Assembly: GCA_965208945.1 (NCBI GenBank)
Contig: OZ242366.1
Coordinates: 2,195,827 to 2,259,826, forward strand
Origin: Bryobacterales bacterium
Lineage (GTDB): Bacteria; Acidobacteriota; Terriglobia; Bryobacterales; UBA6623
Direction of reading: 5' to 3'
DNA length: 64,000 nt
Shown here: piece by piece, positions 11,798 through 59,971 of the stretch
Layout: each line of letters starts with the position of its first letter
Position numbering within the stretch: the first letter of the stretch is position 1
Made by a program: the position numbers and the translations under genes
The notes under the pieces: generated by a model
The model's input: only the letters and a program-made list of their open reading frames with translations
Told to the model about the DNA's origin: nothing
Databases searched by the model: none

Positions 11798-11801
11798 CTA
11801 G

Positions 11802-20198: not shown

Positions 20199-20373
20199 CC
20201 TGCTTTTCTCACCACGCGGCGAGGTGAAGTGCGTGAGAGGGCCGTCAGGACGAGGCGAGCCGCTTGGCGCGCGCAGGCGTACTTGAACAGTACGTTGAGC
20301 ACGGCAAGCAAGCGTAACGAAGTCCTGGCGGTCGTATCGCGTGCTTCGACCGTCAGGTGGTGAGAAATGCAGG
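20199..20373 (+). mobile_element. MITE copy C (short subfamily)
   Basis: TIRs present (the left one slightly degenerate, cctgcttttctcaccac). Flanks are CTGG and CTAG. Confidence 0.88.
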
Positions 20374-22284: not shown

Positions 22285-22485
22285 CCTGTATTTCTCACCA
22301 CGCGGCGAGGCGAAGTGCGTGAGAGGGCCGTCAGGACGAGGCGCAAGCCGGGCGGAGGAAAAAGGCGCGAGCCGCTTGGCGCGCGCAGGCGTACTTGAAC
22401 CGTACGTTGAGCACGGCAAGCAAGCGCAACGAAGTCCTGGTGCTCGTATCGTGTGCTTCGACCGTTGGGTGGTGAGAAATGCAGG
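22285..22485 (+). mobile_element. MITE copy D (long subfamily, 201 bp)
   Basis: Flanked by a direct TTAG...TTAG (22281-22284 and 22486-22489). Contains the extra segment aagccgggcggaggaaaaaggcgcg. Confidence 0.9.
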
Positions 22486-23265
22486 TTAGAGCCTTTCGAG
22501 TTGTTCGCCCGCCACGGCAAAGGCGGCGAAAAGAGTTGCATTGTAGCTGGCGTGAACCAGGGTCGACGGCAGGATCGAACCGGTTCGAGCGCGCAATGTG
22601 CCGAACACGACCCCTACGCCCAGCAGCAGCAGCAGGTTCTGCCATCGCCAGCCGTACTGCGTGCCGTGTACCAGTGAGAACAGGGCGCTCGTGGCGAAGA
22701 CCGCGAAGCCCGCCCCTCGGGAGCGCTCGAATACGGGGAACAGGAAGCCCCGAAAGAAAGTCTCTTCCAATACCGGGGCGAAAAGGATGCCGAAGACGGC
22801 GAGTAGGGCCATCACCAGCGGGTCTTCGAGAAGGATTTCGAGAGGCAGTTTCTCGTCCACCTGCGGCAGCAGCATTGAGACGAGAACCACGCTAATGGCG
22901 AGAAAAGGACCCGTGGCCAGGTATTGAACGGGTGAGCCCTCATAGCGGACCCAGCCGATCGAAGGCCCGAATCGCAAGCGGTACTTGACGGCAACGATCA
23001 GATAGATGAATGCGAAGACCGCGGCCCAGAGCAACATCGAAATCGCCACATTCAGAGGTCCCTGCACGCGCGGCTCTTCCAGGTTGACCTCCCAATCGAA
23101 CACGAATCCCATCCCATAGAGGCACCCGACGGCGATCACCGAGAGCATGAACAGGGCAATCACCCCAAAGACAAGCAGGTAGAGAAGATCGAGATATCCC
23201 CAGGTTTCCGGTTGCTCGGGGTCGTCTGGAGGCAAGAGCGGGGGTGGCTCGCTGGGGTGTTCCAT
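22486..23265 (-). CDS. CPBP family intramembrane glutamic endopeptidase (CAAX protease-like)
   Basis: Motifs EETFFRGF, SLVHG, HASYN. The stop TAA lies inside the TTAG flank of MITE D. An alternative start at 23292 uses the ATG in the MITE E1 terminus. Confidence 0.85.
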   Translation of the reverse strand: MEHPSEPPPLLPPDDPEQPETWGYLDLLYLLVFGVIALFMLSVIAVGCLYGMGFVFDWEVNLEEPRVQGPLNVAISMLLWAAVFAFIYLIVAVKYRLRFGPSIGWVRYEGSPVQYLATGPFLAISVVLVSMLLPQVDEKLPLEILLEDPLVMALLAVFGILFAPVLEETFFRGFLFPVFERSRGAGFAVFATSALFSLVHGTQYGWRWQNLLLLLGVGVVFGTLRARTGSILPSTLVHASYNATLFAAFAVAGEQLERL

Positions 23266-23285: not shown

Positions 23286-23666
23286 CCTGCATGTCTCACC
23301 ACGTGGCGAGGCGAAGTGGGTGAGAGGACCGTCAGGACTAGCCTGCATGTCTCACCACGCGGCGAGGTGAAGTGCGTGAGAGGGCCGTCAGGACGAGGCG
23401 CGAGCCGCTTGGCGCGCGCAGGCGTACTTGACAGTACGTTGAGCACGGCAAGCAAGCGCAACGAAGTCCTGGCGGTCGTATCGCGTGCTTCGGCCGTCGG
23501 GTGGTGAGAAATGCAGGCTAGGCGCAAGCCGGGCGGAGGAAAAAGGCGCGAGCCGCTTGGCGCGCGCAGGCGTACTTGAACAGTACGTTGAGTACGGCAA
23601 GCAAACGCAACGAAGTCCTGGCGGTCGTATGGCGTGCTTCGACCGTCGGGTGGTGAGAAATGCAGG
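23286..23666 (+). mobile_element. MITE copy E1 (long subfamily) carrying nested copy E2
   Basis: E1 is interrupted after gtcaggac by E2. E1 sequence resumes at 23522 with gcgcaagccggg. Confidence 0.88.
23342..23517 (+). mobile_element. MITE copy E2 (short subfamily) nested in E1
   Basis: Complete TIRs, with CTAG on both sides (23338-23341 and 23518-23521). Confidence 0.88.
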
Positions 23667-24386: not shown

Positions 24387-24420
24387 CCTGCATTTCTCAC
24401 CACGTCGTTACACAGGCAGG
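24387..24420. mobile_element. Mini-MITE F (34 bp)
   Basis: Sequence cctgcatttctcaccacgtcgttacacaggcagg flanked by TTAG and CTAA. The right flank holds the stop codon of the 24421-24912 gene. Confidence 0.7.
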
Positions 24421-24912
24421 CTAATCCGAGGCTTGCCGCGAGCGCAACGCCTTGTGGAGCAACCCCAGCCCGGCGGTGATCAGCAACAAAGGCCAGAGCC
24501 GATGGATCGAGGCGTTGAACCAGCCCAACTCTTGAAACTGGAAAATCACGCCGAGCAACAATACGATCGTTCCCGGCGTCCAGTCAAACTCTTGCCGGAC
24601 TTTCTTGCTCGCCAACAGGTTGATTCCAACGGCGATCAGGATCAATGGCCAGAACGCCAATAGGTCATGGAATCGCAAAGCGTCCAGATTGACGGCCTGA
24701 AGGCCGATCCCCAAGCAGATCGTGGCGATGCCAAACGCTCGGGATCTCGGGTCCAGAGCCCAATGCACGCCGGCCGCGATCAAGATTAACGGCCAATAGA
24801 GCCACAGGTCCCAGAGCCGCAGGACATCGAAATTGTGAAGCAGGAACAACACTCCCAGAGCCAGGACGACAAGGCCCGGGATGAAGCCTTTCGCTGAAGG
24901 GAATGACTTCAT
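24421..24912 (-). CDS. Membrane protein with repeated LiaF/DUF5668-like TM hairpins
   Basis: 163 aa. Three repeats of LWPLILIAxG-type TM segments. Confidence 0.7.
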   Translation of the reverse strand: MKSFPSAKGFIPGLVVLALGVLFLLHNFDVLRLWDLWLYWPLILIAAGVHWALDPRSRAFGIATICLGIGLQAVNLDALRFHDLLAFWPLILIAVGINLLASKKVRQEFDWTPGTIVLLLGVIFQFQELGWFNASIHRLWPLLLITAGLGLLHKALRSRQASD

Positions 24913-27243: not shown

Positions 27244-27419
27244 CCTGCATTTCTCACCACGCGGCGAGGCGAAGTGCGTGAGAGGGCCGTCAGGACGAGG
27301 CGCGCGCCGCTTGGCGCGCGCAGGCGTACTTGACGGTACGTTGAGCACGGCAAGCAAGCGCAACGAAGTCCTGGCGGTCATATCGTGTGCTTCGACCGTC
27401 GAGTGGTGAGAAATGCAGG
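27244..27419 (+). mobile_element. MITE copy G1 (short subfamily)
   Basis: TIRs present, with CTAG on both flanks (27240-27243 and 27420-27423). Confidence 0.9.
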
Positions 27420-27515
27420 CTAGAGCTTTCAGTGCACCCGGAATCGGTCCAAGAAAATAGCTAATGTAACACATTCCGAAAACCGCAAGTGCATTGAACC
27501 ACGGTGCGTTTCTAG

Positions 27516-27692
27516 CCTGCATTTCTCACCACGTGGCGAGGCGAAGTGGGTGAGAGGGCCGTCAGGACGAGGCGCGCGCCGCTTGGCGCGCGCAGGCGTA
27601 CTTGAACAGTACGTTGAGCACGGCAAGCAAGCGCAACGAAGTCATGACGGTCATATGGCGTGCTTCGACCGTCGGGTGGTGAGAAATGCGGG
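27516..27692 (+). mobile_element. MITE copy G2 (short subfamily)
   Basis: TIRs present. Flanks are CTAG and CTAA. Separated from G1 by an 88-bp AT-richer spacer. Confidence 0.9.
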
Positions 27693-29225: not shown

Positions 29226-29412
29226 ACCTGTATTCTCACCACGAGGCGAGGCGAAGTGGGTGAGAGGGCCGACAGGACGAGGCGCGGGCCGGGCGGAGGA
29301 AAAAGGCGCGTGCAACATGGCTTTTAAAGGTTTTTACGAATCACGAGTCACGAAACACGAATCACGGCCTTTTTATCGCGTGCTTCGACCGTCGGGTAGT
29401 GAGAAATGCAGG
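29226..29412 (+). mobile_element. MITE copy H (heptad-bearing variant)
   Basis: Normal left arm and right TIR. The centre is replaced by ggcttttaaaggttttt plus an (A/T)CACGAR heptad array. Flanks are CTGA and TCAG. Confidence 0.85.
29334..29368. repeat. Heptad tandem repeat (W)CACGAR x5 inside MITE H
   Basis: Units read ttacgaa tcacgag tcacgaa acacgaa tcacggc. Confidence 0.85.
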
Positions 29413-31377: not shown

Positions 31378-31548
31378 CCCAAGGACCCTTGTGGCAGTCG
31401 CACCCGGAGCCGTCCGGTTCCACCGTGCTTGTGGGGCAGAACAGCGGGCTGTTTTGGAGTCCTTGGCCTCTGTACAGGCGTTGAAGCGTTGCGCTGAACC
31501 AACTTCCTGCCGAAGACCAGGCCGCCGGAACTTCGACTGCCGGTCTAG

Positions 31549-31749
31549 CCTGCATTTCTAACCACGTGGCGAGGCGAAGTGGGTGAGAGGGCCGTCAGGA
31601 CTAGGCGCAAGCCGGGCGGAGGAAAAAGGCGCGAGCCGCTTGGCGCGCGCAGGCGTACTTGAACCGTACGTTGAGCACGGCAAGCAAGCGCAACGAAGTC
31701 CTGGCGGTCGTATCGCGTGCTTCGACCGTTGGGTGGTGAGAAATACAGG
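31549..31749 (+). mobile_element. MITE copy I (long subfamily) with an unoccupied internal CTAG
   Basis: Flanks are CTAG and TCAG. Internal sequence gtcaggactaggcgcaag is the empty form of the site occupied in E1 and K. Confidence 0.9.
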
Positions 31750-31760
31750 TCAGGCGGTCT

Positions 31761-33170: not shown

Positions 33171-33237
33171 CCTGCATGTCTCGCCATGTGGCAAAGAGAA
33201 GTCCGTTCGCATCACGAATCAGGGCTTTCAAGTTTTT

Positions 33238-33269
33238 CACTAGCCACTGGCCACTAATCACTATCCACT
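33238..33269. repeat. CACTNNN x5 tandem heptads
   Basis: Units read cact agc cact ggc cact aat cact atc cact. Confidence 0.85.
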
Positions 33270-33282
33270 GCTTTTTTGCTTT

Positions 33283-33310
33283 TCACGAAACACGAGACCC
33301 GAAACACGGC
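33283..33310. repeat. Heptad tandem repeat (W)CACGAR x4
   Basis: Units read tcacgaa acacgag acccgaa acacggc. Confidence 0.8.
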
Positions 33311-33625
33311 CTTTTCTGTGGCTCGTTTGGTGCCCGTTGGTACTGAAGCCCTTCAGTCTTTTTTTCGGCCGGGGGACGGTTTAGGTTGAAAGTGATAACG
33401 CCGTTGTTGGGAACGAAAACCCCATCCGCGCCCGTCGGGGCCACAAGTCGGGTGGGGACGGAAGAGCCGCCCGGTCGCTACTTACCTGCGCGTTGTGGCG
33501 CGGCATGGGGCGGTTATGGCGCGGAATGGGCGGCCGCCGTCCCCCGCGCTGGCAACACGGCCTTTCCTGTTCACCAGACGTCAGATATTTCTTCTGGAGC
33601 GAACCAAGCCCCCCAACCATGGTTT

Positions 33626-33667
33626 TCACGAAACACGAAACACGAGACACGAGGCACGAATCACAGC
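33626..33667. repeat. Heptad tandem repeat (W)CACGAR x6
   Basis: Units read tcacgaa acacgaa acacgag acacgag gcacgaa tcacagc. Confidence 0.85.
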
Positions 33668-33680
33668 TTCCCTACCCACG

Positions 33681-33720
33681 ATTTCCCACCATTTCCCACG
33701 ATTTCCCGGCATTTCCCGGG
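33681..33720. repeat. 10-bp phased repeat ATTTCCCNNN x4
   Basis: Units read atttcccacc atttcccacg atttcccggc atttcccggg, with an exact 10-bp period. Confidence 0.9.
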
Positions 33721-33918
33721 CCCCCCACCCCCTCTCCGCCGATCAAGTGTCCACGAGCCGTCCGCCTTTCTTGGTCAGCCGCCCGGGACTGCCGCCCCCG
33801 CCCGGTCGCTGCTTTCCTGGGCGTTGTGGCGCGGCATGGGGCGGCTATGGCGCGGCATGGGGTGCCCCGAGCCACTGTTCACGCACCATCCTCACCAGCA
33901 ACATAACCATTCGGGTTT

Positions 33919-33953
33919 TCACGAAACACGAGACACGACACACGAATCACGGC
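33919..33953. repeat. Heptad tandem repeat (W)CACGAR x5
   Basis: Units read tcacgaa acacgag acacgac acacgaa tcacggc. Confidence 0.85.
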
Positions 33954-34290
33954 TTTTTTTCACATGCTGCGACCGTCGGGTGGTGAGAAATGCAGGCTAA
34001 CGCCCTGCTCGACGATCTGGTGGCTCAACAGCCGGCGGAAAAACGGACTAAGCGCGTCAGTCGGCAAGCCCGCAGGCTTCAAAGGGGCATGTACGAAGCG
34101 CGGGAAAACGAGTGGAAAGGACTTTTTCCGAATCCCGATTCGGTTCAAGATTCGGAATTCCCCACAATTCGTCACAATTCGTCGGAAAGATTCGGATAAG
34201 CACCTGCCGCCCATCAAGCGCCCCCGCGCACTGCGGCAACCGGGACATCGGCTTCATGGATGCATCGCGTCCCCGCCTGACCTTCCCTGG

Positions 34291-34416
34291 CCCGCAGGTC
34301 TCGCCAAGTGGCGAGGTGAATCAAGCGGCGTTGACAACGGTCTGGATATTTCCCGCTTGTATGATCCTCACACGAGCGGCCAAAAACCGAAAACTGAAAC
34401 TGATGAGAAAGGCAGG
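34291..34416. mobile_element. X-family small element X3 (126 bp) with degenerate MITE-like termini
   Basis: Left end is cccgcaggtctcgccaagtggcgagg, the interior is an X module, and the right end is tgatgagaaaggcagg. Flanks are CTGG and TCAG. Confidence 0.65.
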
Positions 34417-41299: not shown

Positions 41300-41337
41300 G
41301 CGGCACTGATCGCAGGCGGTCAACGACCCTGGCTCCC

Positions 41338-41533
41338 CACGCTTGGCGCGCGCAGGTGTACTTGATCGTACATCGAGCACGGCAAGCAAGCGCAACGTAG
41401 TCATGGCGGTCGTATCGCCTCCTTCGGCCCTCGGGTTACGAGACACGCAACACGGCCTTTAAGGTTTTTTACGAAACACGAAACACGGCCGTTTTATCGC
41501 GTGTTCCGGCCGTCATGTGGTGAGAAATGCAGG
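41338..41533 (+). mobile_element. MITE copy L (left arm missing; heptad-bearing right part)
   Basis: Begins within the gcttggcgcgcgcagg centre and ends in gtggtgagaaatgcagg plus CTAG. Contains two heptad arrays at 41436-41489. Confidence 0.8.
41436..41489. repeat. Two (W)CACGMR heptad arrays separated by ctttaaggtttt
   Basis: Units read ttacgag acacgca acacggc ... ttacgaa acacgaa acacggc. Confidence 0.8.
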
Positions 41534-44807: not shown

Positions 44808-44984
44808 CCTGCATGTCTCACCACGCGGCTAGGTGAAGTGCGTGAGAGGGTCGTTAGGACGAGGCGAGCGCCGCTTGGCGCGCACAGGCGTACTTGAACA
44901 GTACGTCGAGCACGGCGAGCAAGCACAACAAAGTGATGGCGGTCGTATCGCGTGCTTCGGCCGTCGGAAGCTGAGAAATGCAGG
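44808..44984 (+). mobile_element. MITE copy M (short subfamily)
   Basis: The right flank CTAA (44985-44988) contains the stop codon (TAG on the minus strand) of the aldo/keto reductase gene. Confidence 0.88.
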
Positions 44985-45950
44985 CTAACTGCCCTGATAC
45001 TCGTGTCTGCGCCGGCCTTCGAGCGCCGTGCGCGCGTCGCGCTTCCAGTCTTCCAGGTCGGGGCCGGCAAGCTCTGCGGCTCTCCCGCGCAGCTCGGCCA
45101 TCACATCCCTGTTGTACTGCGAGAACTGCTGCGCGATGCGGACATCGTCTTCGATCTGACCGATCGTCGTGCATCCGACCGCGAGGCAATGGATCGGAAG
45201 GCTCAGCACGTAGTTGATGCATTGCCCGACCCCGAATGACTGGAGCAGCTTCGAGTTGGCCGTGCTCTTCATGCCCTGGATGCCCAGGTTCTGCTTTTGG
45301 GCTTCCGGCAGCACCTTCTGTTCGAAGCTCAAATACGACGGATCGGCTGGATTGAGCGGCATCAGGATCGTGTCGAAGTCCTTGTAAAGCCGCAGCATCT
45401 CGAGATGGGCTTCCGGATCGTGATGCCCGGTAAAACCGATGTAGCGGCATTTGCCCGCTTTCTTTGCCGCCTCGAAAGCTTCGATCGCACCGCCGGGAGC
45501 GAAGATGGCTTTGAGGTCCTCATCTGACTTGACGGAGTGAATCTGCCACAGATCGAGATAGTCGGTCTTGAGTCTCTTCAGCGACTTGTGTAGTTCTTCC
45601 TCGGCTTCCTTGCGGGTTCGCTTCACGCTCTTCGTGGTCAGGAAGACCTCCTTGCGGACATCCTCGAGCGCTTCGCCGTAGACCACCTCGGAGCGGCCGT
45701 TCCAGTAGCTGTGTGCATTGTCGAAGTAGTTGAGCCCGAGTTCATAGGAGCGGCGCGTGATGGCCTTGGCCTGATCGAACGTGCAAAGCGGAAAACGCCC
45801 ACCGGCTTGTCCGACGAGCGTGAGTTTCTCGCCGGTCTTGCCGAACGTCCTTTTCGGTACGTCACCGGCTTTCAGGCGGCTCGCCCGGGTACTGCCCGCC
45901 GCGATGCTCAACCCCGCAACAGCACTGCCGAAGAAGCTGCGTCGTTTCAT
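44985..45950 (-). CDS. Aldo/keto reductase, Tat-type signal
   Basis: Starts MKRRSFFGSAVAGLSIAAG. AKR blocks (YFDNAHSY, GFTGHH). Confidence 0.88.
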   Translation of the reverse strand: MKRRSFFGSAVAGLSIAAGSTRASRLKAGDVPKRTFGKTGEKLTLVGQAGGRFPLCTFDQAKAITRRSYELGLNYFDNAHSYWNGRSEVVYGEALEDVRKEVFLTTKSVKRTRKEAEEELHKSLKRLKTDYLDLWQIHSVKSDEDLKAIFAPGGAIEAFEAAKKAGKCRYIGFTGHHDPEAHLEMLRLYKDFDTILMPLNPADPSYLSFEQKVLPEAQKQNLGIQGMKSTANSKLLQSFGVGQCINYVLSLPIHCLAVGCTTIGQIEDDVRIAQQFSQYNRDVMAELRGRAAELAGPDLEDWKRDARTALEGRRRHEYQGS

Positions 45951-50533: not shown

Positions 50534-51016
50534 TTGTCATACCTCGAGTGGCTTGAGAACTCACTGACGGACAAGCTCGAAGAGCAGCCGGTCGGAGAGC
50601 CTGTCGCCCTTCGCGCCTACCTGGAGCTGAGCGACGATCACGGGCACCTGGTTCCGACCGCCGGGGCGATGGCGGCTGTCGCAGGCGCTTGGTTCGGTGC
50701 GGGATTGCCCAAGGTCTATGCTCTCGGCGGAGCCGACCAGGGATACGTTTCGGTCACCGCGACGTATCCTGGCGGACAGACCGCTCTGATCGTCGCCGAG
50801 TCCTTGAGCGCAGCCGCCGGTGAGCGGCCCTCCGTGCGTCTCTTGCTGATCGGCAACCATGGCACGATGGAGTTCGCTGATTCGCCGGGTGCGGATTTCC
50901 GCACGGTCGATCGAACGCCGCCTGCCGGCGCGAGCAGCGAGGCTCTGAGCCGGGCGATAGCTGAGTCGCTCCGGTCCAGCGCCCCCGTGGAAGGGAGCAC
51001 GCACAGCCGTGGCTAG
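50534..51016 (+). CDS. Hypothetical protein (resembles a Gfo/Idh/MocA C-terminal-type domain)
   Basis: 160-aa ORF with a TTG start. Its stop TAG lies inside the left CTAG flank of MITE N. Start and function are uncertain. Confidence 0.45.
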   Translation: MSYLEWLENSLTDKLEEQPVGEPVALRAYLELSDDHGHLVPTAGAMAAVAGAWFGAGLPKVYALGGADQGYVSVTATYPGGQTALIVAESLSAAAGERPSVRLLLIGNHGTMEFADSPGADFRTVDRTPPAGASSEALSRAIAESLRSSAPVEGSTHSRG

Positions 51017-51192
51017 CCTGCATATCTCCCCGCGTGGGGACGTGAAGTGCGTGAGAGGGCCGTCAGGACGAGGCGCGCGCCGCTTGGCGCGCGCAGGCGT
51101 ACTTGATCGTACATCGAGTACGGCAAGCAAGCGCAACAAAGTTATGGCGGCCGTATCGCGTGCTTCGGGTGTCAGGCGGTGAGATATGCAGG
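51017..51192 (+). mobile_element. MITE copy N (short subfamily, variant centre gtacttgatcgtacatcgag)
   Basis: Flanks are CTAG and CTAA. The ATG in the right TIR (51186) opens the downstream ORF. Confidence 0.88.
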
Positions 51193-52340
51193 CTAAACCT
51201 TCGTTCGGCGTTCTGCTCGTAACGGGCGGGATGACCCACCAGGAGAACTACGGAGAGGGATTCCTCGCCGACCCGCGCGCAAGAGTCGTCGGCCTTACCG
51301 ATGAACCCGATGTCGACGAACGCCGCGACCGCCTGAACCGCGGATTGGCCGATCAGTTCGGCATCCCCTTCCTGCCGGATATCCGCGAGGCGCTCGCGCG
51401 GTCCGATGTGCACCTCGTCTCCGTCTGCTCGGAGTTCGAGCGGCGCACCCGCGTCTCTCAAATCTGTGCGGAAGCCGGCAAGCATCTCTACGTCGACAAG
51501 CCCATGGTGACGAAGATGGCGGAGGCCGACAAACTCGTGGCGACAGCCGGGCGGCGTGGTTTGCGCGGGCAGATGTTCACTCAGGTCGGCGCGCCGTACG
51601 CGAGGCGGCTGAAAGGAATCGTCGATTCCGGTGCTTTGGGCGAGATCAAGTCGATCCAGTGTGACCTCATGTTCGCGAAGGGTTTCACCGGCGGCGCTCC
51701 GCTTGGCGTGCCGCGGCGCGAGCACGATCCGCCCAGGCGGTTCACGTTCCCGGACGCCAAGCGTGAGATCTGGACGACCGCGGTCTATTCGCTCACCTTG
51801 ATCCGCTGGCTCCTCGGCGGACCCCGCTTTCGTAGCGTCTACGCCACGAGCGCCAACTACTTTTTCGAGGAGCACTACAAACGCGATGTCGAGGACTTCG
51901 GCACGCTTGCTCTCACGCTCGACAACGGCGTCACGGCGTCGCTGATCGCCGGCCGGATCGGTTGGCACAGTCACCGCAGTTCCGGCCCGAACTTCACGCG
52001 CATCATCGGTAGCAAGCGCAGCTTCCTTCTTGACGCGCACAGCCCGCGCTTCGAAATCTCGTCCGACCGAAAGTGGGCGCCGCCGGCGAAGGACCCCATC
52101 GATCCCATGGGCTTCTGGTCGAGCACCATGGAGCGTGGGAACGCTCAACCCAAGCCCTTTTGGCATGAGCCGCCGACCGCGCCCGGGCAATCGGATCAGG
52201 CTCTCTTCCTCGATTGCCTCGAACAGGACAAAGAGCCGGAAGTCACGCTGGACGATGCCGCGCAGGCATCCGAGGCCATGCTGGCCGCCTACCGGTCCGC
52301 TGCGACAGGGCAGGTGGTGGCGTTGCCTCTGCCGCGCTAG
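51186..52340 (+). CDS. Gfo/Idh/MocA family oxidoreductase
   Basis: 384 aa. Rossmann beta1 plus Gly-rich loop FGVLLVTGG begins at codon 7. The only in-frame start after the upstream TGA (51179-51181) is the ATG inside the MITE N terminus. The stop TAG lies in the CTAG flank of MITE K. Confidence 0.8.
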   Translation: MQAKPSFGVLLVTGGMTHQENYGEGFLADPRARVVGLTDEPDVDERRDRLNRGLADQFGIPFLPDIREALARSDVHLVSVCSEFERRTRVSQICAEAGKHLYVDKPMVTKMAEADKLVATAGRRGLRGQMFTQVGAPYARRLKGIVDSGALGEIKSIQCDLMFAKGFTGGAPLGVPRREHDPPRRFTFPDAKREIWTTAVYSLTLIRWLLGGPRFRSVYATSANYFFEEHYKRDVEDFGTLALTLDNGVTASLIAGRIGWHSHRSSGPNFTRIIGSKRSFLLDAHSPRFEISSDRKWAPPAKDPIDPMGFWSSTMERGNAQPKPFWHEPPTAPGQSDQALFLDCLEQDKEPEVTLDDAAQASEAMLAAYRSAATGQVVALPLPR

Positions 52341-52396
52341 CCTGCATTTTTCACGACGTGGCGAGGCGAAGTGGGTGAGAGGGCCGTCAGGACTAG

Positions 52397-54120
52397 CCCG
52401 GAAATCTCACCAGGGGGTAGGAAAAGGGCTGCCTGGTGTGGCATAAAACATTTATGTCCAAAACGTTAGCGCCACAAGCCGAAAGCAGCCCTCTGTCAAC
52501 AGAGTGTATCCAATCCAGCTTCACCTTTGCCAAGCATTTTCGACGCCAGGTGAGCGCTCGCTTTGACGGCGGGGTGATCAGTTCCGACGGCGGCGCGCTG
52601 CTGTTACGGGAGGTGGACCAGCGCATCAACCTGCTGCCGCGCTTGGCGGGCTGCTTCGAGGATGGCCGCGATTCGCGGCGCATCGAACACCTGGTGGGGG
52701 AGTTGGTCTCGCAGCGGGTCTACGGGCTGGCGCTGGGATACGAAGACCTCAACGATCACGACGAGTTGCGGCGCGATCCGGTGCTGGCGCTGCTGGCGGG
52801 CAAGAGCGACGTGTCCGGGCAGCGCCGCCGCCGCGAGCGTGACCGCGGCCAGCCGCTGGCGGGCAAGAGCACGTTGCAGCGACTGGAACGAACGACCGAT
52901 GGCGTGGATCGTTACCAGAAGGTCCGCTGCGTCAGCGAAGCGATCGACCGCCTGTTGGTGGACGTGTTCGTGGAAGCGCACTCGCAGGAGCCGGCCGAGG
53001 TCCTACTCGATATCGACGCCACCGACACGCCTTTGCACGGGCAGCAGGAGGGACGTTTCTTTCACGGCTACTACAGACACTACTGCTACTTGCCGCTGTA
53101 CATCTTCAGCGGCGAGCACGTGTTGTGCGCGCGGCAGCGGGTATCGAATCAAGACGCGGCGGCGGGCAGCGTAGCGGAGTTGGAGAGGATCGTGGCGCAG
53201 CTCCGGGCCGCGTGGCCGGAGGTGAAGATCATCCTGCGTGGGGACTCGGGGTTTTGTCGGGACGAGTTGCTGAGTTGGTGCGAAGAGAACCGGGTGGACT
53301 ATGTGGTGGGGCTGGCGCGCAACGAGCGGCTGCAGTCGTTGATCGAGGAGGCGCTCGAAGAGGCGGCCAGCAGGCAGCAGCAAACGGGCCGGCCGGCGCG
53401 GGCCTACAGCGAGTTCGAGTATCGGACGCTTGAGAGTTGGAGCCGGGAGCGGCGGGTGGTGGCGAAAGCCGAACAGTTGGTGGGCAAGCAGAACCCGCGC
53501 TACGTGGTGACGTCGCTGGACGGGGAGCGCTGGCCGCCGCGGCGGTTGTATGAACAACTCTACTGCGGGCGCGGGGAGGCGGAGAATCGCATCAAGGAGC
53601 AGTTGAGTCTGTTCGCGGATCGCATGAGTACGGAGACGCTACGGGCCAATCAGTTGCGGCTGCATCTGTCGTCGCTGGCGTATGTGTTGCTGGTGGGACT
53701 GCGGCGGCTGGGGCTGAAGGGCACGCAGTGGGCGCGGGCGCAGACCGAGACGATCCGGCGGGGGCTGTTGAAGATCGGCGCGCTGGTGAAGGTGAGCGTG
53801 CGGCGGGTGCATCTGTCGCTGGCCAGCGGCTACCCCGATGAGGAGGCGTTCGCGGCGGTGTATCGGGCGCTGCGTCCGCCGGGACCAGCAACTGTTTGAC
53901 AACAGTGAGCGAACCGAAAAACGGGGCCGTCGGCAGCCTCAGGGGCGAAGTGTTTCTCAAATCGGCCACAACCCGAAAAACGAACATTCGCGAGCCGCTA
54001 AGGGCAGCGCAAAACGCCCCGTAGAGGCCTTCACTCACCCTCGCCGCGAAGAATACCGTGTTTCAGACCCTATTTCGGCCTCCCTCAACCCATCGCGAAG
54101 CCGCTGGTGAGAAATGCAGG
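52397..54120 (+). mobile_element. IS1380-family insertion sequence (1724 bp), probable autonomous partner of the MITE
   Basis: Bounded by CTAG direct repeats (52393-52396 and 54121-54124). IRL is cccggaaatctcaccagg and IRR is gctggtgagaaatgcagg. IRR matches the MITE TIR at 16 of 17 positions. Confidence 0.85.
52436..53899 (+). CDS. IS1380 family DDE transposase
   Basis: 487 aa. N-terminal FDGGVISSDGGALLLREVD and the blocks LDIDATDTPLHGQQEGRFFHGYY and RGDSGFCR are typical of this family, identified from memory. Confidence 0.85.
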   Translation: MWHKTFMSKTLAPQAESSPLSTECIQSSFTFAKHFRRQVSARFDGGVISSDGGALLLREVDQRINLLPRLAGCFEDGRDSRRIEHLVGELVSQRVYGLALGYEDLNDHDELRRDPVLALLAGKSDVSGQRRRRERDRGQPLAGKSTLQRLERTTDGVDRYQKVRCVSEAIDRLLVDVFVEAHSQEPAEVLLDIDATDTPLHGQQEGRFFHGYYRHYCYLPLYIFSGEHVLCARQRVSNQDAAAGSVAELERIVAQLRAAWPEVKIILRGDSGFCRDELLSWCEENRVDYVVGLARNERLQSLIEEALEEAASRQQQTGRPARAYSEFEYRTLESWSRERRVVAKAEQLVGKQNPRYVVTSLDGERWPPRRLYEQLYCGRGEAENRIKEQLSLFADRMSTETLRANQLRLHLSSLAYVLLVGLRRLGLKGTQWARAQTETIRRGLLKIGALVKVSVRRVHLSLASGYPDEEAFAAVYRALRPPGPATV

Positions 54121-54281
54121 CTAGGCGCAAGCCGGGCGAAGGAAAAAGGCGCGAGCCGCTTGGCGCGCGCAGGCGTACTTATGGGATGGTTCGCTCCCAC
54201 TTCCGCTGCGTCGTCGAGTTCGGCCATGCTGGTAGCAACGGCCGTCCCCGGCCGCAGTTCACGAACCGAGAGGAAACCATC

Positions 54282-55355
54282 ATGGCAACGACCCAGCGAT
54301 CATCCCGCAAGAGCGTATGGAAGGAGGTCGTCACGATCGGCCTCGATCTAGCAAAACACAACGTCGACTTGGTCGGCTTGGACGCAACCGGCCGGGTGCT
54401 CACCCGTCGCCGCTACTCGAAGGGCAAGCTGCTGGAGGTGACCGCCCAGATGCAGCCCTGCCGTATCGGCATGGAAGCCTGCTGCGGCGCCCATCACCTG
54501 GGCCGCCAACTGCTGGCCCAGGGGCACGACGTGAAGCTGATGCCGCCCAAATATGTGAAGCCCTTTGTGAAGCGCGACAAGAACGACTCGACGGACGCCG
54601 AGGCCTGCGCGGAAGCCTGTCTGCGGCCGAGCATGCGCTTCGTGGCGGTCAAGAGCGAGCAACAACTGTCGATGCAGTCGCTGCACCGCTATCGCTCGCG
54701 GCTGGTGGGCAACTCGACGCAGTTGATCAACCAGGCGCGCGCCTTTCTGCTGGAACGCGGCATCACCCTTCCACAGGGCAAGCGTTGGTTTGTGGTCCGT
54801 CTGCCGGAGATCCTCGAGGACGCCGATAACGGCCTGTCCGACGAAATGCGGGCGCTGCTGGCGGGCATGTTTGCCGAATGGCAAGTGCTGGCAGAGAAGA
54901 TTCAGCAAGTCAACACCTATCTGCTGAGGAAAGCGCAGGCGAGCGAGGCCTGCCGGCGGCTCAGAGAGATCCCCGGCATCGGCGTGCAGACAGCGACGGC
55001 CTTGGTGGCGACGATCGGCAACGCCGAGGCCTTCGAGAAGGGGCGCGACGTCGCTGCTTGGTTGGGTCTGGTGCCGAGAGAGTACTCCAGCGGAGGCAAG
55101 CAGCGCTTGGGAGGCATCAGCAAGCGCGGCAACCGCTACGTCCGGACGCTGCTGGTGCACTGTGCCCGCTCGAGCCTCGACGTGCTCGCGAAGCGCAGCG
55201 ACCAACTCGGCCAGTGGCTGCGGCGGATGCTCCTGAACAAAGATCGGCGGGTCGTGATCGTGGCGCTGGCGGCACGGCTGGCGCGCATCGCATGGGCCTT
55301 GCTGAGCAGCGGCCAGCGCTTCTCTCAACAGCGGCAACCAGCCCCGGCGGGTTAA
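54282..55355 (+). CDS. IS110 family DEDD transposase/recombinase
   Basis: 357 aa. Blocks IGLDLAK, GMEAC, KNDSTDAEA, and C-terminal GISKRGNRYVR. Confidence 0.9.
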   Translation: MATTQRSSRKSVWKEVVTIGLDLAKHNVDLVGLDATGRVLTRRRYSKGKLLEVTAQMQPCRIGMEACCGAHHLGRQLLAQGHDVKLMPPKYVKPFVKRDKNDSTDAEACAEACLRPSMRFVAVKSEQQLSMQSLHRYRSRLVGNSTQLINQARAFLLERGITLPQGKRWFVVRLPEILEDADNGLSDEMRALLAGMFAEWQVLAEKIQQVNTYLLRKAQASEACRRLREIPGIGVQTATALVATIGNAEAFEKGRDVAAWLGLVPREYSSGGKQRLGGISKRGNRYVRTLLVHCARSSLDVLAKRSDQLGQWLRRMLLNKDRRVVIVALAARLARIAWALLSSGQRFSQQRQPAPAG

Positions 55356-55618
55356 CCGCCCTGCGGTCCGCCGTAGCACTACCAGGAGCTCACAGTTTGT
55401 CTGCTTACTCCCGATTGATGGACAAAACGGTCGTACCGGCGTCACCGAATCCTGTTACTGTTCATGGCCCTCACAGGTCGGCGTACTTATGAGGAGCGGG
55501 ACGTGCGGACCCCATCATGGCCCGGAACCAGCGCGGTTCCACCTAGAGGTCGGATATATTGGCGCAGACCAACGTTCAGCAAGAAGGAATAGGTGGACAT
55601 CCCGGGAGCGAACCATAT
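55356..55618 (+). ncRNA. Candidate guide (bridge/seek-type) RNA region in the IS110-family right end
   Basis: Contains tactgttca (55456-55464), the reverse complement of the right target flank tgaacagta. Also contains ggcgtactt (55480-55488), identical to the left target flank. A hairpin ggaacc-agcgc-ggttcc is present. No fold model could be run. Confidence 0.4.
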
Positions 55619-55864
55619 ATTGAACAGTACGTTGAGCACGGCAAGCAAGCGCAACGAAGTCCTGGCGGTCGTATCGCGTGCTTAGACCGCCGGGTGGCGA
55701 GAAATGTAGGCTAGTCGCTCCCGGAACGGTTCCCTGCCATCCCGCGCGCCAAGAGCGCCGGGCGATCGCTTGACGTAGGTGAGCCCTGAGCCGCTATCGA
55801 AGATCAGAGCGGTGTGATAACCTGACAGCAGCTCGACCCGCATACTCATTTGGGAGGAACGAAC

Positions 55865-56752
55865 ATGTCCATCGAGAGACGCCATTTTTTCCGCCACGGA
55901 CTCGCCGTCGGCGCGGCGCTTGCGACCGGCTTGGATCGAAACCGCGCGCACGCCGCCGCACTCCCTCGCAGGTACGCCAACGACGTGGTCGAGTTGGGGC
56001 CCGACAAGGTCAAGCTCTCCCGTCTGGCGATGGGCACCGGCACCAGCGGTTTCGGCGGGTCTTCGAATCAGACGCGCCAGCTCGGCGTCAAGGGCATGGT
56101 CGATTTGGTTTGGTTCGGCTACGACAACGGCGTTACGTTTTGGGATTCGGCGGATCAGTACGGAAGCCATCCGCACCTGAAGGGCGCGCTCAAGCACATC
56201 CCGCGCGAAAAGGTCGCGATCATGACCAAGACCCACGCCAAGACCTACGAAGAGATGCGGCGCGACCTCGACCGCTACAAAAAGGAACTCGGCACGGACT
56301 ACATCGACATCGTCCTGTTGCACGCCATGCGCGAAGTCGATTGGCCCACGCAACGCAAAGGCGCCATGGAATACCTTTCCGAGATGCGCGAGAAGGGTGT
56401 GGTCAGGACGCACGGGGTCTCCTGTCACTCGCTGCCGGCCTTGAAGACCGCCGCCAAGACACCATGGGTGCACGTTGACCTCGCGCGCATCAACCCGATG
56501 GGCGTCGCGATGGATGCCGACCCTGCCACCGTCAAAGACGTCCTGCGCGATATGAAGAGTCAAGGCAAGGGCATCATCGGCATGAAGATTCTGGGCGCGG
56601 GCAAGATGCGCCGTCGGGTCGACGAGATGCTCTCCCACGCGCTTGCGATGGACTTCATCGACACCTTTACGATCGGCGCCGAGAGCGTCCAGGAGCTTGG
56701 CGATCTGGTTCGCCGCATCCCGCAAGCGTCGCAGCGCGGCTGGCCGAGCTAA
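55865..56752 (+). CDS. Aldo/keto reductase, Tat-type signal
   Basis: Starts MSIERRHFFRHGLAVGAALATG after gggagg. AKR blocks are present. Confidence 0.88.
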   Translation: MSIERRHFFRHGLAVGAALATGLDRNRAHAAALPRRYANDVVELGPDKVKLSRLAMGTGTSGFGGSSNQTRQLGVKGMVDLVWFGYDNGVTFWDSADQYGSHPHLKGALKHIPREKVAIMTKTHAKTYEEMRRDLDRYKKELGTDYIDIVLLHAMREVDWPTQRKGAMEYLSEMREKGVVRTHGVSCHSLPALKTAAKTPWVHVDLARINPMGVAMDADPATVKDVLRDMKSQGKGIIGMKILGAGKMRRRVDEMLSHALAMDFIDTFTIGAESVQELGDLVRRIPQASQRGWPS

Positions 56753-56804
56753 GGCTCGGGTGCGACAAGTCACTTTGGTCTCCGGCGCAGCGTCCGCCGT
56801 TCAG

Positions 56805-57533
56805 ATGTCGTCACTCCCCAGTCTGCTTTCCTCGAAGGACATTGCTCCGTCCGAGCGGCTGATTTTCGCCCTGGACGTCCCGACGACCGACGAGGCCCGC
56901 CGGCTTGTCAGGCGCCTCGGCGATGCTGTCCGCTTCTACAAGCTGGGCCTGGAACTCTCCATGGCCGGCGGTTACTTCGAGTTGGTCGATGACCTGCTCG
57001 CTCAAGACAAGAAGGTCTTCGTTGACCTCAAGTTCTTTGACGTTCCCCAGACGGTTCAACGAGCCGTCGCGCGCCTCGACGGACGCGGGATTTCCTTCAC
57101 GACCGTGCACGGCAACGAGAACATCCTGGAAGCGGCATGTTCCGCGAAAGGAGACGTGAAGGTCCTCGCCGTGACCGTGCTGACGAGTCTCGACGAGGGA
57201 GACTTGCGCGACCTGGGATTCCAGTGCAGTCCCAAGGAACTCGTTCTATCGCGCGCTAAACGCGCTATCGCTGTCGGCTGTGACGGCGTTGTCTCGTCGG
57301 GACTCGAAGCGCCGGAGCTGCGGCGCGGGCTGGGCGAGAACTTCCTGGTCGTTACCCCCGGCATCCGCCCGGTGGCCAACGTCGACGACCAGAAGCGGAC
57401 GGTCAACGTCGAGCAGGCTTTTCACAACGGCGCTGACTACATCGTCGTCGGACGGCCGATCAAAGAAGCGCCCGATCCCCGCGAAGCTGCGGAGGCGATC
57501 CAGCAAACGATCTCGGACGTCTTCAGCGGATAA
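56805..57533 (+). CDS. pyrF: Orotidine 5'-phosphate decarboxylase
   Basis: Starts MSSLPSLL. Blocks FALDV and FVDLKFFDVPQT. Confidence 0.9.
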   Translation: MSSLPSLLSSKDIAPSERLIFALDVPTTDEARRLVRRLGDAVRFYKLGLELSMAGGYFELVDDLLAQDKKVFVDLKFFDVPQTVQRAVARLDGRGISFTTVHGNENILEAACSAKGDVKVLAVTVLTSLDEGDLRDLGFQCSPKELVLSRAKRAIAVGCDGVVSSGLEAPELRRGLGENFLVVTPGIRPVANVDDQKRTVNVEQAFHNGADYIVVGRPIKEAPDPREAAEAIQQTISDVFSG

Positions 57534-58101
57534 GGCGGCCTTGGTCCGGCACATCACCGCCGCTGAGGGGGAACTCCTCGATCTTGTGGTACACCGCCCC
57601 GCTCGGCCGCAACTCACTGGTGAAGAGCACGAAGCGATCCACGATCTGCAAGCCGAACTCACGGCCGTGCTCGTCGATGGCCCGCTGCAACTTCGCCGGC
57701 CGGATTCTGCCTTTCACCCGGCCCAGGGTCACATGGGGCCGGTAAGCCCGCCGCTCCCGTTCGATCCCCAACGGAGCCAACGCCTCGTCGACCTTCGCGG
57801 CGAGTCGCGGCAAGTCGTCGACGTGCCGCAGTCCGGCCAGGAAGACCCGAGGGGAGCGCAGATTCGGCAAGACGCCCAATCCGGTGACGGTGAAGCGAAT
57901 CGTACCGGACCTCAACCGGCGAAGCGCCTCGACCACTTCATCGCAACGCCTCTCGGGCCACTCGCCGATGAACTTCAGGGTCAGGTGCTGGTTCTCCTGC
58001 CTCACCCACCGCATGGGCAGTCCGGGCGGCATGGCATCGATGGCCTCCTGCAGAGCTTGCCGGCAGCCTTCGTCCAGTTCGATCGCCGCAAACAAACGCA
58101 T
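57523..58101 (-). CDS. thpR: RNA 2',3'-cyclic phosphodiesterase (2H family)
   Basis: 192 aa. Two HxTxx motifs (HLTLKF and HVTLGR). Confidence 0.85.
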   Translation of the reverse strand: MRLFAAIELDEGCRQALQEAIDAMPPGLPMRWVRQENQHLTLKFIGEWPERRCDEVVEALRRLRSGTIRFTVTGLGVLPNLRSPRVFLAGLRHVDDLPRLAAKVDEALAPLGIERERRAYRPHVTLGRVKGRIRPAKLQRAIDEHGREFGLQIVDRFVLFTSELRPSGAVYHKIEEFPLSGGDVPDQGRLIR

Positions 58102-58105
58102 CTAG

Positions 58106-58139
58106 CCTGCATTTCTCACCACGTGGCGAGACATGCAGG
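58106..58139. mobile_element. Mini-MITE O (34 bp)
   Basis: Sequence cctgcatttctcaccacgtggcgagacatgcagg with CTAG on both flanks. It abuts the thpR start codon. Confidence 0.75.
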
Positions 58140-58204
58140 CTAGCAGTTCCCACAAGAAGTTTCGAAGGAAATAGGCCGCTGTGTTGTAAACTGTCTCGTC
58201 GTCC

Positions 58205-59257
58205 ATGGCTACCGACCGGCATCGGCTCATCCAGGGGTTGCTTCAGCACTACCCCTTCGTGATCAAGAACTTCAGCGCCTACTTCAGGAATCTCTATCGT
58301 CGCAATATTCTCAAGACAACGGTCGTAACGCCCTACTCGGCGATCTTCTACGCCACGCACAAGTGCAATCTCGATTGCGGCTACTGCACCCAGAAGAACC
58401 CGGAAGTCTTCAGCGAGGAGCTCGATACCGAAACGACCATCCGCCTGTTCCGCAACCTGCGCAAGGATGTCGACACATTGTTGATTACGGGCGGCGAGTG
58501 CACCGTCCGCCCCGACATTGAGGAACTCGTCCGTGCGGCCCGGCAGGATGTCAAGTTCCGGTCTGTGCTGGTGGTGACGAACGGCGTGCTGCTCGATAAA
58601 CGCCGGGCGATGCTGCCGCACCTGAGCGGGCTGGTTTGCAGCCTCGACGCGATCTCGCACGACCCCTCCGATCCGATGTCGAAGTCGGCCGCGGTGCCGC
58701 GCGTGCTCGAGAACCTCATGATGGCCAAGCAGATTCTTCCGCCCGATGCCATCACACTGAGTTGCGTTCTCGAATTGTGGAACATCGAAGAAGCCGAGAA
58801 GATCCTGGCGTTCTGTCAGGAGCACGGTTTTTACTTCTCGGTTCAGTCCGCTCAGAACAACGGCAAGTATCCGAACTTCACGTACCTGAAGAATGAGCGC
58901 TACCAACGCTTCGTGGACAAACTCATCTCGATGCGAAGGAACCGCGAGGCGCGTATCAACGGTACGCCCAAGCTGCTCTCGACCGTGCTGCGGTTCGAAG
59001 AGTTCAAGTGTTATCCGACCATGTTCCCGCGCGTCTACCCCAACGGCGACATCTTTTATCCCTGCGAGGTTCTTCGGAAGATCGCCGGGAATGTGCTGGA
59101 GGACGGATCGATCTCCGCGGCGTTCGCCCGCGGGCGCCGGATCTACGGCGAAACCCCGCAGTGCAAGAATAACTGCTTTTTGTTCGGGAACGTCTTATCT
59201 TCCTATTACGTGGAAGACTTCTGGGGATTGGCTGCCGACACCGTCCGGCCCGCCTAG
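58205..59257 (+). CDS. Radical SAM protein with Cys-rich (SPASM/twitch-like) C-terminal region
   Basis: 350 aa. Cluster motif CNLDCGYC. C-terminal CYPTMFPRVYPNGDIFYPCE and CKNNC. Confidence 0.85.
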   Translation: MATDRHRLIQGLLQHYPFVIKNFSAYFRNLYRRNILKTTVVTPYSAIFYATHKCNLDCGYCTQKNPEVFSEELDTETTIRLFRNLRKDVDTLLITGGECTVRPDIEELVRAARQDVKFRSVLVVTNGVLLDKRRAMLPHLSGLVCSLDAISHDPSDPMSKSAAVPRVLENLMMAKQILPPDAITLSCVLELWNIEEAEKILAFCQEHGFYFSVQSAQNNGKYPNFTYLKNERYQRFVDKLISMRRNREARINGTPKLLSTVLRFEEFKCYPTMFPRVYPNGDIFYPCEVLRKIAGNVLEDGSISAAFARGRRIYGETPQCKNNCFLFGNVLSSYYVEDFWGLAADTVRPA

Positions 59258-59971
59258 CCGCTTGAAGCTGTAGATCGCGTGTGCCGCCGTTTCGGCCAGG
59301 TGGGTATGGAACGCGCCGGCGTATTCGAACCGCAGCGCTCTCCCATCCTTCAGGAACAGCTCCATGGGCGCAGTCGCTGTTTGATCGACGTGGGTCTCGC
59401 GCACGGGCGGGTCCTTGGCTTCCGAGACGTAGACCGGTACGTAGGGCTTGCCGTGCACATGGATGTCTTCGATCTCCGGCACGGCAAGGACGCCGGCCAA
59501 GTCGACACCGTCTGCCGGAACGAACAATAGTTCTTGATCTTTCAGCAGGATGTACAGCGGCTCTCCGGTCGGGACGCCGGGAAATCGGCCCGCTGTCAGC
59601 TTCCCGCCGTTGAGAAGGTAGCCCGACTGGTAACGAGCTTGCAGCTTGCGCTCGTGCTCCGGGTCGCGCACGCCCCTGACCAGCAGGGCGAGCAGAACAA
59701 GCACGCTCCCGGGAATCACGAGCCAGAGTTTCGAGAAGCTCATTCCGAGTGCGGCGGCCGCCAGGCCCAATCCTGCTGCGAGAAGCCGCACCCGCCACCA
59801 ATCCGGTCGGCGCCGGCGTCGGCGGACGGTGGGCACGAGCAGGATGACCCAGAAGAAGGCGTACAGAAACGACTCGATCCACTTTGATGGCCGGGCTGGC
59901 CGGTGTGATCTCTTCTTGTCGCCTTCTTGCTGTGCGGGGTCCGACGGAGAGGGTCGGGGGCGCTCCCTCAA
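59195..59971 (-). CDS. Hypothetical membrane protein
   Basis: 258 aa, two TM segments, high third-position GC. ATGA overlap with the glmM stop. The 3' end overlaps the radical SAM gene by about 63 nt in a convergent arrangement. Confidence 0.65.
   Translation of the reverse strand: MRERPRPSPSDPAQQEGDKKRSHRPARPSKWIESFLYAFFWVILLVPTVRRRRRRPDWWRVRLLAAGLGLAAAALGMSFSKLWLVIPGSVLVLLALLVRGVRDPEHERKLQARYQSGYLLNGGKLTAGRFPGVPTGEPLYILLKDQELLFVPADGVDLAGVLAVPEIEDIHVHGKPYVPVYVSEAKDPPVRETHVDQTATAPMELFLKDGRALRFEYAGAFHTHLAETAAHAIYSFKRLGGPDGVGSQSPEVFHVIGR

Follow-up and report, generated by a model that had tools for sequence, protein, structure and literature searches.

Does an insertion sequence (IS) of the IS1380 family supply the transposase that moves the small repeats crowded around it? 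The question is raised by a 64,000-nucleotide stretch of a Bryobacterales genome (contig OZ242366.1), referred to here as the window, in which a 1,724-bp IS (52397–54120, plus strand) is surrounded by MITEs (miniature inverted-repeat transposable elements), with about 19 elements that carry the MITE terminus and encode no protein. A first-pass annotation of the window had proposed that the IS is the probable autonomous mobilizer of the MITEs. In the analysis reported here, mobilization of the MITE in trans by this IS1380 lineage is the best reading of the sequences, with a probability of roughly 65–70%.

The IS is apparently intact. It is bounded by two copies of CTAG (52393–52396 and 54121–54124), its target-site duplication, between which it begins with CCCGGAAATCTCACCAGG (left inverted repeat, IRL, 52397–52414, plus strand) and ends with GCTGGTGAGAAATGCAGG (right inverted repeat, IRR, 54103–54120, plus strand). 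Both ends are imperfect and begin with CC; the IRL, which occurs only once in the window, agrees with the reverse complement of the IRR (CCTGCATTTCTCACCAGC) at 13 of 18 positions. A single open reading frame (ORF; 52454–53899, plus strand, alternative GTG start at 52436) encodes a transposase of 481 residues that matches the NCBIfam profile NF033539 (transpos_IS1380) over positions 2–418 of 419 with 383.9 bits (cutoff 180), and Pfam PF13701 (DDE_Tnp_1_4) with an E-value of 6.4e-147. All columns that are invariant in 15 homologues (58–95% identity) are retained, including DIDATD, RGDSGF and RGEAENRIKE, and the candidate DDE residues, assigned by motif only, are D186/D188, D264 and E377. The IS1380 family is delineated in ISfinder by a size of about 1.55–2.0 kb, imperfect terminal inverted repeats beginning with CC, and direct repeats of 4–5 bp. 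The full-length profile match, the single ORF with a DDE core, the size, the ends and the duplications of the present element all agree with this description. The boundaries given in the first-pass annotation, its family assignment and its two end comparisons (13 of 18 for the IRL and IRR, and 16 of 17 for the IRR and the MITE terminus, see below) were all confirmed. Judged by its sequence, the element is an intact IS1380-family IS and is probably active. An exact-sequence look-up of the transposase with either start returned no identical record, and a profile search against the PDB sequences gave no match to any solved structure, piggyBac included.

The repeats around the IS have the properties by which MITEs are recognized in practice: they are short, non-coding and multicopy, with a 17-bp terminal inverted repeat and target duplications. 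Copies of 176–177 bp, a 201-bp variant with 24 extra bases and a 116-bp deletion form are present, and the 12 full-length copies in the window are 83–97% identical in pairwise comparisons (median 93%). Aligned with the MITE terminus (CCTGCATTTCTCACCAC), the reverse complement of the IRR (CCTGCATTTCTCACCAG) is identical at 16 of 17 positions, or at 21 of 22 with a 1-nt gap, and the 18-mer terminus has 31 matches with at most three mismatches in the window, versus 0.07 expected. Across all fetched loci, 107 full-length MITE copies were collected. Their 4-bp flanks are YTAR in 63–64% on each side, with CTAG the commonest; the two flanks are identical in only 32 of the 107 copies, and CTGG and CCAG are common decayed forms. 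The change from CTAG to CTGG or CCAG is that expected from very-short-patch-type repair. In both its termini (16/17) and its 4-bp YTAR duplication, the MITE therefore agrees with an autonomous element present alongside it. The terminus recurs in several families whose interiors are unrelated, among them 34-bp mini-elements that consist of termini only, which speaks for mobilization in trans.

The IS is itself nested in a MITE, a point absent from the first-pass annotation. The nest was resolved by alignment of 52337–55714 to an intact long-variant MITE with its flanks (31545–31753). The host MITE, a 201-bp long variant (52341–55710), is interrupted twice, by the IS1380 element at an internal CTAG and by a 1,441-bp element of the IS110 family. 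The alignment consists of three blocks: 52337–52392 (53 of 56 positions identical to 31545–31600), 54121–54178 (57 of 58, to 31601–31658) and 55620–55714 (86 of 95, to 31659–31753). The IS is flanked on each side by 56 bp, and these form consecutive pieces of one MITE. Of the three host pieces, all on the plus strand, the left one (52341–52392) ends at the internal CTAG, the middle one (54125–54180) lies between the two nested IS elements, and the right one (55622–55710) carries the right terminal repeat. The host MITE has its own CTAG duplication; the upstream gene (51186–52340) ends in a TAG stop codon that overlaps the left copy (52337–52340), and the right copy is at 55711–55714.

In the intact reference copy (31549–31749, plus strand), the internal CTAG is unoccupied (GGACTAGGCG) and the left junction of the IS is seen in its uninterrupted form (GGACTAGGCGCAAG). 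This copy serves as the empty site for a second nest as well, a long-variant MITE (23286–23666, plus strand) into which a 176-bp MITE (23342–23517) has inserted at the internal CTAG corresponding to that of the IS insertion. The insertion points of the IS (52396/52397) and of the nested MITE (23341/23342) both map to 31600/31601 of the reference, in two different MITE copies. The claim of the first-pass annotation that IS and MITE share the CTAG target and the 4-bp duplication is thus borne out, down to an identical insertion point.

An empty site for the entire nest was found in a syntenic metagenome contig (MKWU01015262.1, L127) that is 95–97% identical to window positions 51191–59788. It has a single CTAG (...GCCGCGCTAG/CCGCTGTCGG) where the window has the whole 3.4-kb nest. 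The same contig carries a 177-bp MITE flanked by CTAG on both sides where the window (58205–58215) reads GGCTACCGACC; the CTAC of the window at this point could be a single-nucleotide polymorphism or an excision footprint. Presence and absence therefore differ in both directions between strains that are 95–97% identical, and insertion of the MITE is documented both by this contig and by the nested and intact copies in the window.

Nesting of the IS in the MITE is recurrent. The placement of the IS was tallied over 13 close copies, four of which (the window and L087, and in the opposite orientation L005 and L083) lie in a MITE-internal CTAG with non-homologous outer flanks. Three others (L001, L004 and L085) abut a terminal CTAG of a MITE, two (L002 and L003) lie in another repeat, and one (L086) is inserted in a different MITE. 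MITEs occur at about one per 3 kb around every IS copy with a transposase at least 88% identical (the window, L001–L005 and L083–L089); none was found in the 60 kb around relatives of 81–84% identity (L006–L008), and elsewhere in about 1.3 Mb just three diverged MITE relatives were seen, all in one metagenome-assembled genome (MAG). According to the first-pass annotation, the proposal would fail if MITE-rich genomes never carried the IS or a close relative; the two were found together in at least five assemblies, the MITE-dense ones being the window, two contigs of ERZ21830300, GCA_965243455.1 and OZ241991.1.

The IS belongs to a widespread lineage. Transposases with 95–96% identity are common in metagenomes and MAGs, and IS copies in other assemblies have 88–96% nucleotide identity and the same ends. 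The 5.63-Mb contig of ERZ21830300 contains three identical copies, each with CTAG duplications (IRL CCCGGATCTCTCACCAGG; reverse complement of the IRR CCCGCATTTCTCACCAGC), and GCA_965243455.1 contains at least six identical copies of a 91% relative at different sites, each with its own duplication; such multiple copies speak indirectly for transposition. The duplication is 4 bp (CTAG or TTAG) in 12 of the 13 close copies and 5 bp in one. In a genome scan, 558 relatives were detected; the closest are in Bryobacterales MAGs (the genome of the window is not among the representatives), and the best match (95%) lies on a 2.3-kb contig binned as Gammaproteobacteria. The ends read in about 30 relatives (56–95% protein identity) are almost all CCCGNATTTCTCAC(C), with 4-bp repeats of CTAG, TTAG, CTAA or TTAA. 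These relatives define a clade, mostly from Acidobacteriota, with the end consensus CCCGNATTTCTCACC (or, as used in the preferred explanation, CCYGNATTTCTCACC) and YTAR duplications, mostly CTAG.

Two observations on the spread and placement of the IS stand apart from the question of the MITE. A copy with 96.5% nucleotide identity and CTAG duplications was found on a 7,109-bp contig (Ga0326859_1002620, together with Logan contigs; L210/L211) that encodes a RepA_C protein and a MobA/MobL relaxase and has no MITE. Its gene content suggests that this contig is probably a mobilizable plasmid and a possible vehicle for the spread of the IS; plasmid carriage may explain the matches in contigs assigned to Gammaproteobacteria by binning. 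The IS1380 element of L086 lies within a copy of the second, 256-bp MITE (terminus CAGCCCGTGTC) and has a 5-bp CGTAA duplication.

On the explanation preferred here, which leans on family membership for the binding and cutting steps, the transposase of this IS1380 lineage would bind the terminus of about 17 bp, make 4-bp staggered cuts at YTAR, and integrate the IS itself or, acting in trans, whatever DNA lies between two such termini. The MITE would then move like a miniature IS, with the transposase supplied in trans by the IS lineage. At the nest, the host MITE inserted first, at the CTAG that shares bases with the upstream stop codon, and the IS then landed in the MITE-internal CTAG. Every insertion leaves two copies of its CTAG and the long variant brings another, such that the elements create their own landing sites; such self-made sites would explain tandems (11682–11978) and nests (23286–23666 and 52341–55710). 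We infer that the transposase of the window, rather than that of a relative, catalyzes the movement of the MITE.

The target of these elements is scarce. CTAG is depleted about six-fold in the window, with 35 occurrences versus 217 expected from base composition, and TTAA, TTAG and CTAA are likewise depleted; of the 35 CTAGs, 22 lie next to an end of a MITE or of the IS. In many cases the YTAR duplication of a MITE and the stop codon of a neighboring gene (TAG or TAA, either strand) overlap, as at 51013–51016 and 52337–52340 for the genes ending at 51016 and 52340, and for minus-strand genes with stop codons at the MITE duplications 22486–22489, 24421–24424 and 44985–44988. Because YTAR often coincides with a stop codon, the insertions sit at gene ends, and the duplication keeps the stop. 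In addition, the terminus (GGTGAGAAATGCAGG) has an ATG that faces outward, into which several ORFs run (as at 41527 and 51186).

A number of observations weigh against mobilization of the MITE by this particular lineage. The co-occurrence of IS and MITE was scored in loci found by way of the IS, and shared ancestry is a confounder. CTAG rarity makes the reuse of MITE-borne CTAGs partly forced, and the shared CTAG is therefore weaker evidence; an unrelated 256-bp MITE (terminus CAGCCCGTGTC) fills the same MITE-internal CTAG in L002 (5023–5282). The similarity between IS and MITE ends at about 17–22 terminal bp. The T at position 3 of the window IRR, which gives the 16/17 match, is peculiar to the window copy; the close relatives have a C and match at 15 of 17 positions (reverse complement of the IRR, CCCGCATTTCTCACCAGC). 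The IRL of the sub-lineage, which in close relatives reads CCCGGA(TC/TA/AA)TCTCACCAGG, matches the MITE terminus at only about 12–13 of 17 positions, and no MITE of the window has an IRL-type end. The fit of the MITE terminus to the clade as a whole is also about as good as its fit to the window IS; the ends of L066, with 58% protein identity, match it at 15 and 16 of 17 positions. Within a genome the IS copies do not differ from one another and their duplications are intact, whereas the MITE copies are diverged with decayed flanks, which implies that most of the MITE amplification predates the current IS copies. No transposase gene was found on 120 MITE-bearing metagenome contigs (643 kb), which yielded nothing of the IS but the 319-bp hybrid at L194 described below; this is weak evidence, short-read contigs being prone to break at a multicopy IS. 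Finally, the termini of the MITE relatives in CBDDCT01 show no clear co-variation with the local IS of 58% identity, and the shared orientation of neighboring MITEs, described below, is not what DDE transposition with symmetric ends would lead one to expect.

The likeliest alternative is that a different member of the IS1380 clade, past or present, with both ends CC(C/T)GCATTTCTCACCAC, mobilizes the MITE, and that the window IS is a co-resident using the scarce CTAGs of the MITEs. The MITE terminus equals the clade consensus, and distant members with symmetric consensus ends exist (L066, L010, L016 and L064); the IRL of the window sub-lineage departs from the consensus at positions 3, 5, 7 and 8 and, since the MITE terminus is the consensus, looks like a diverged end. 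The greater age of the MITE copies also suits such a mobilizer, as do the diverged MITE relatives in CBDDCT01, a genome whose detected IS is only 58% identical. On the other hand, no better-matching IS was seen in the loci fetched from MITE-bearing genomes, about 2.4 Mb in all, and the close IS lineage was found in each MITE-dense assembly examined. The MITE polymorphism between strains of 95–97% identity points to recent activity where this lineage is seen. Moreover, IS1380-family transposases, such as those of ISEcp1 and ISPme1, accept imperfect right ends, and divergent ends are tolerated in the family (PMC9330008). On balance we regard a separate mobilizer as unlikely, at something like one chance in five.

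The MITE is a foldback over its whole length, with 65 base pairs and arms that are inverted copies of each other. The minimum free energy of its RNA is -114.7 kcal/mol (z=-11.5) for one strand and -88.5 (z=-6.7) for the other, so that the strand with the G.U pairs folds 26 kcal/mol better; folded as DNA, the MITE has an energy of -66.5 (z=-9.4). Eight wobble pairs are fixed in the hairpin, all of them G.U on one strand and none A.C, and compensatory double changes were seen at seven pairs (23 copies from several genomes, including 27244–27419). MITE copies from different genomes are as alike (95% mean column identity) as those within one genome. An Rfam scan of the whole window gave no family match.

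Neighboring MITEs have the same orientation in 52 of 61 pairs (85%; p=2e-8), including 13 of 14 pairs in the window and all copies in each of L083–L087, and in 19 of 24 pairs on independent metagenome contigs; the shared orientation extends over tens of kilobases. Co-orientation of 85% is not expected for DDE transposition of an element with symmetric ends, and it counts with the objections listed above. The orientation is not associated with GC skew (70 of 127) or with the majority coding strand (70 of 127); it is weakly linked to the direction of the upstream gene (99 versus 64), and an association with AT skew (81 of 127, p=5e-4) is post hoc and exploratory only. The IS is oriented randomly relative to the MITEs (four same, six opposite). 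A tentative interpretation, which we consider improbable though worth stating, is that the hairpin is under strand-specific constraint, through replication-linked insertion or retention by hairpin orientation, or is a structured RNA in 3' untranslated regions at stop codons, and would not be a passive passenger.

The first-pass annotation went further and suggested an origin of both MITE ends in the right end of the IS by internal deletion. A direct origin of this kind, with both arms representing the IS right end after internal deletion or inverted duplication, draws on three facts: at positions 5, 7 and 8, which distinguish IRL from IRR, both ends of the MITE are of the IRR type; the foldback means that both arms descend from one sequence; and a marginal end-anchored alignment of the IS right end with the left arm of the MITE reaches 37 of 48 columns (p ~0.02–0.03, uncorrected for about 24 comparisons). 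Beyond the terminus, no significant local or chained homology was detected. Local alignments of the subterminal regions gave p=0.1–0.9, chained alignment of the 260-bp IS right end gave p=0.39 with the MITE in one orientation and p=0.02 in the other, and a BLAST search of the IS-masked window with the IS ends (120 bp from the left, 260 bp from the right) recovered only the 16-bp terminus in the MITEs. The resemblance that the annotation had seen between 54032–54048 and the MITE arm includes a real 10-mer (CGCGGCGAGG); it is at chance level, as the longest exact match between the interiors of IS and MITE is 11 nt and is equalled by 18.5% of shuffles. A single internal deletion cannot yield two right ends, and the IRR type is also the clade consensus; the deletion model is unsupported and was rejected. 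The IRR-like ends of the MITE are most simply accounted for by its foldback origin together with the divergence of the IRL, and derivation from the IS is not needed. Alignment of the IS ends to the MITE, which the annotation had recommended, thus upheld the 16/17 match and limited the likeness to about 17–22 bp that fit the whole clade. By these comparisons, what the MITE has in common with the IS is confined to the termini, and it does not qualify as a deletion derivative in the strict sense; direct descent from the window IS is very unlikely.

One element combines parts of both. At L194 (3691–4009), a 319-bp hybrid consists of an IS-type IRL together with 123 bp from the start of the IS (84% identity), 86 bp of unassigned sequence, and the right half of a MITE; it ends in the MITE terminus followed by CTAG, was seen as a single copy, and represents either the remnant of a deletion or a non-autonomous chimera.

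That the terminal likeness is coincidental or convergent, with the repeat spreading as a single-stranded hairpin linked to replication or through an unrelated CTAG-targeting transposase, would suit the whole-length hairpin (z=-11.5, with its eight fixed G.U pairs on one strand), the co-orientation of neighboring copies (52/61) and the unrelated MITE at the same CTAG, but is highly improbable given that DDE staggered cuts are recognized by exact 4-bp duplications and a clean empty site, that a chance 16/17 match to a transposon family with the same duplication and target is itself very unlikely, and that no HUH- or RAYT-type gene was seen in the window in a search that was not exhaustive. The IS5 family also makes 4-bp YTAR duplications; an IS5-family origin of the MITE was ruled out, since the termini match the IS1380 clade.

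The remaining MITEs of the window are distributed along its length. A 177-bp copy with CTAG on both sides (4802–4978, minus strand) is the only one in the opposite orientation; the others described here are on the plus strand unless stated. Two tandem MITEs at 11682–11978 share one CTAG, a 116-bp deletion variant (11682–11797) being followed by a 177-bp copy (11802–11978). Further copies are found at 20199–20373 (175 bp), 27244–27692 (two copies, 27244–27419 and 27516–27692), 44808–44984 (177 bp, among the more diverged) and 51017–51192 (176 bp), with a left CTAG that shares bases with the stop codon of the gene that ends at 51016. A long variant at 22285–22485 is flanked by TTAG on both sides and has GGACGAGG, without CTAG, at its internal site. 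A variant at 29227–29412 has the same termini and a different right half with ACGAAACACG repeats, and a truncated or rearranged MITE at 41330–41533 has a right terminus followed by CTAG and an uncertain left boundary. Termini of the same type enclose unrelated interiors in the region 33171–34416 (33171–33996, 826 bp, and 34291–34416, 126 bp; boundaries approximate). A 34-bp mini-element at 58106–58139, with no strand assigned, consists of two abutting termini between CTAG flanks, and a second one is located at 24387–24420.

The second element in the host MITE (54181–55621, plus strand) belongs to the IS110 family and resembles the IS1111 group. It is inserted at GCGTACTT^GAACAGTAC, with an ambiguous TT at either boundary, and encodes a transposase (54282–55355) that matches the NCBIfam profile transpos_IS110 with 335 bits. 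Its left and right non-coding ends are 101 and 266 nt long, and its 11-bp subterminal inverted repeats are at 54188–54198 and 55604–55614. The right end contains two guide-like segments within 55456–55488 (55456–55464 and 55480–55488, plus strand): the right target flank is complementary to TACTGTTCA, the left one identical to GGCGTACTT, and the two 9-mers occurred together in none of 2,000 shuffles. This arrangement suggests a bridge RNA programmed against the center of the MITE. The predicted fold of the right end is not significant (z=+0.84) and has no Rfam match, and no other copy of the element was found in the fetched loci. In the IS1111 group, the bridge RNA is encoded in the right end, the subterminal inverted repeats are 7–17 bp long, and repeats are targeted (PMC11208160). 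The present element is like members of that group (IS4321/IS5075 and IS621-type) in its DEDD/IS110 transposase, short left and long right ends, 11-bp repeats and repeat target; it differs in that the target is the center of an IS1380-type MITE. A promoter-like site (55594–55621) faces outward across the end of the IS110-family element.

Compared with known systems, the window IS is similar to IS1380, IS1247, ISEcp1 and ISPme1 in its single DDE ORF, its length of about 1.7 kb, its asymmetric imperfect ends beginning with CC, and its target duplications of 4 bp (5 bp in one case). ISEcp1 makes AT-rich duplications of 5 bp. IS1247 has 1,672 bp, repeats that match at 13 of 16 positions and a 5-bp duplication (PMC3281130), and recognition of the right end is relaxed in the family (PMC9330008). 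In contrast to these elements, the clade of the window IS is strongly target-specific (YTAR, mostly CTAG) and is associated with a very abundant MITE; neither an IS1380-family MITE nor a CTAG target was found in the searchable literature. The pairing resembles the classical IS–MITE pairs (IS630/Tc1-like, IS5-related and Correia elements) in that the MITE is short, non-coding, intergenic and multicopy, shares ends and duplication with the IS, and forms nests and tandems. Tn3-derived TIMEs share only their termini with the autonomous element (PMC4133298), and the window MITE is like them in this respect. Unlike the classical pairs, the present one has an IS1380 partner, a near-perfect foldback with strand-asymmetric wobble pairs, co-orientation, and a target site of its own in the long variant.

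The piggyBac elements target TTAA and have CCC/GGG termini. IS1380 transposases serve as the prokaryotic outgroup of piggyBac (PMC10813416), and the clade described here resembles piggyBac in its CCC...GGG ends and its 4-bp YTAR duplications, which include TTAA (L010 and L016). It differs in its preference for CTAG, and its transposase has no sequence-level match to the piggyBac structure.

The pairing of IS and MITE seen here is of a well-known type and leaves current concepts unchanged. The best-known activity of the IS1380 family is the mobilization of CTX-M beta-lactamase genes by loose recognition of the right end; what the window adds is a documented pairing of this family with an abundant MITE, which makes up about 5–6% of the local sequence and, extrapolated from the densities found here, perhaps more than 1,000 copies per genome. 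In this GC-rich genome starved of CTAG, a strict palindromic target directs insertions toward stop codons and self-made sites, with the outcome that three unrelated mobile elements are stacked in one 201-bp repeat, among them an IS1111-type element apparently RNA-programmed against the MITE. The IRL, the IRR, the MITE termini and the 34-bp mini-elements are ready substrates for tests of end recognition in the IS1380 family. If the interpretations offered above are true, a strand constraint would be unusual for a MITE with symmetric ends, the clade could be a bacterial model for target choice of the piggyBac type, and the genome a possible model for how tetranucleotide starvation channels mobile elements into landing pads of their own making.

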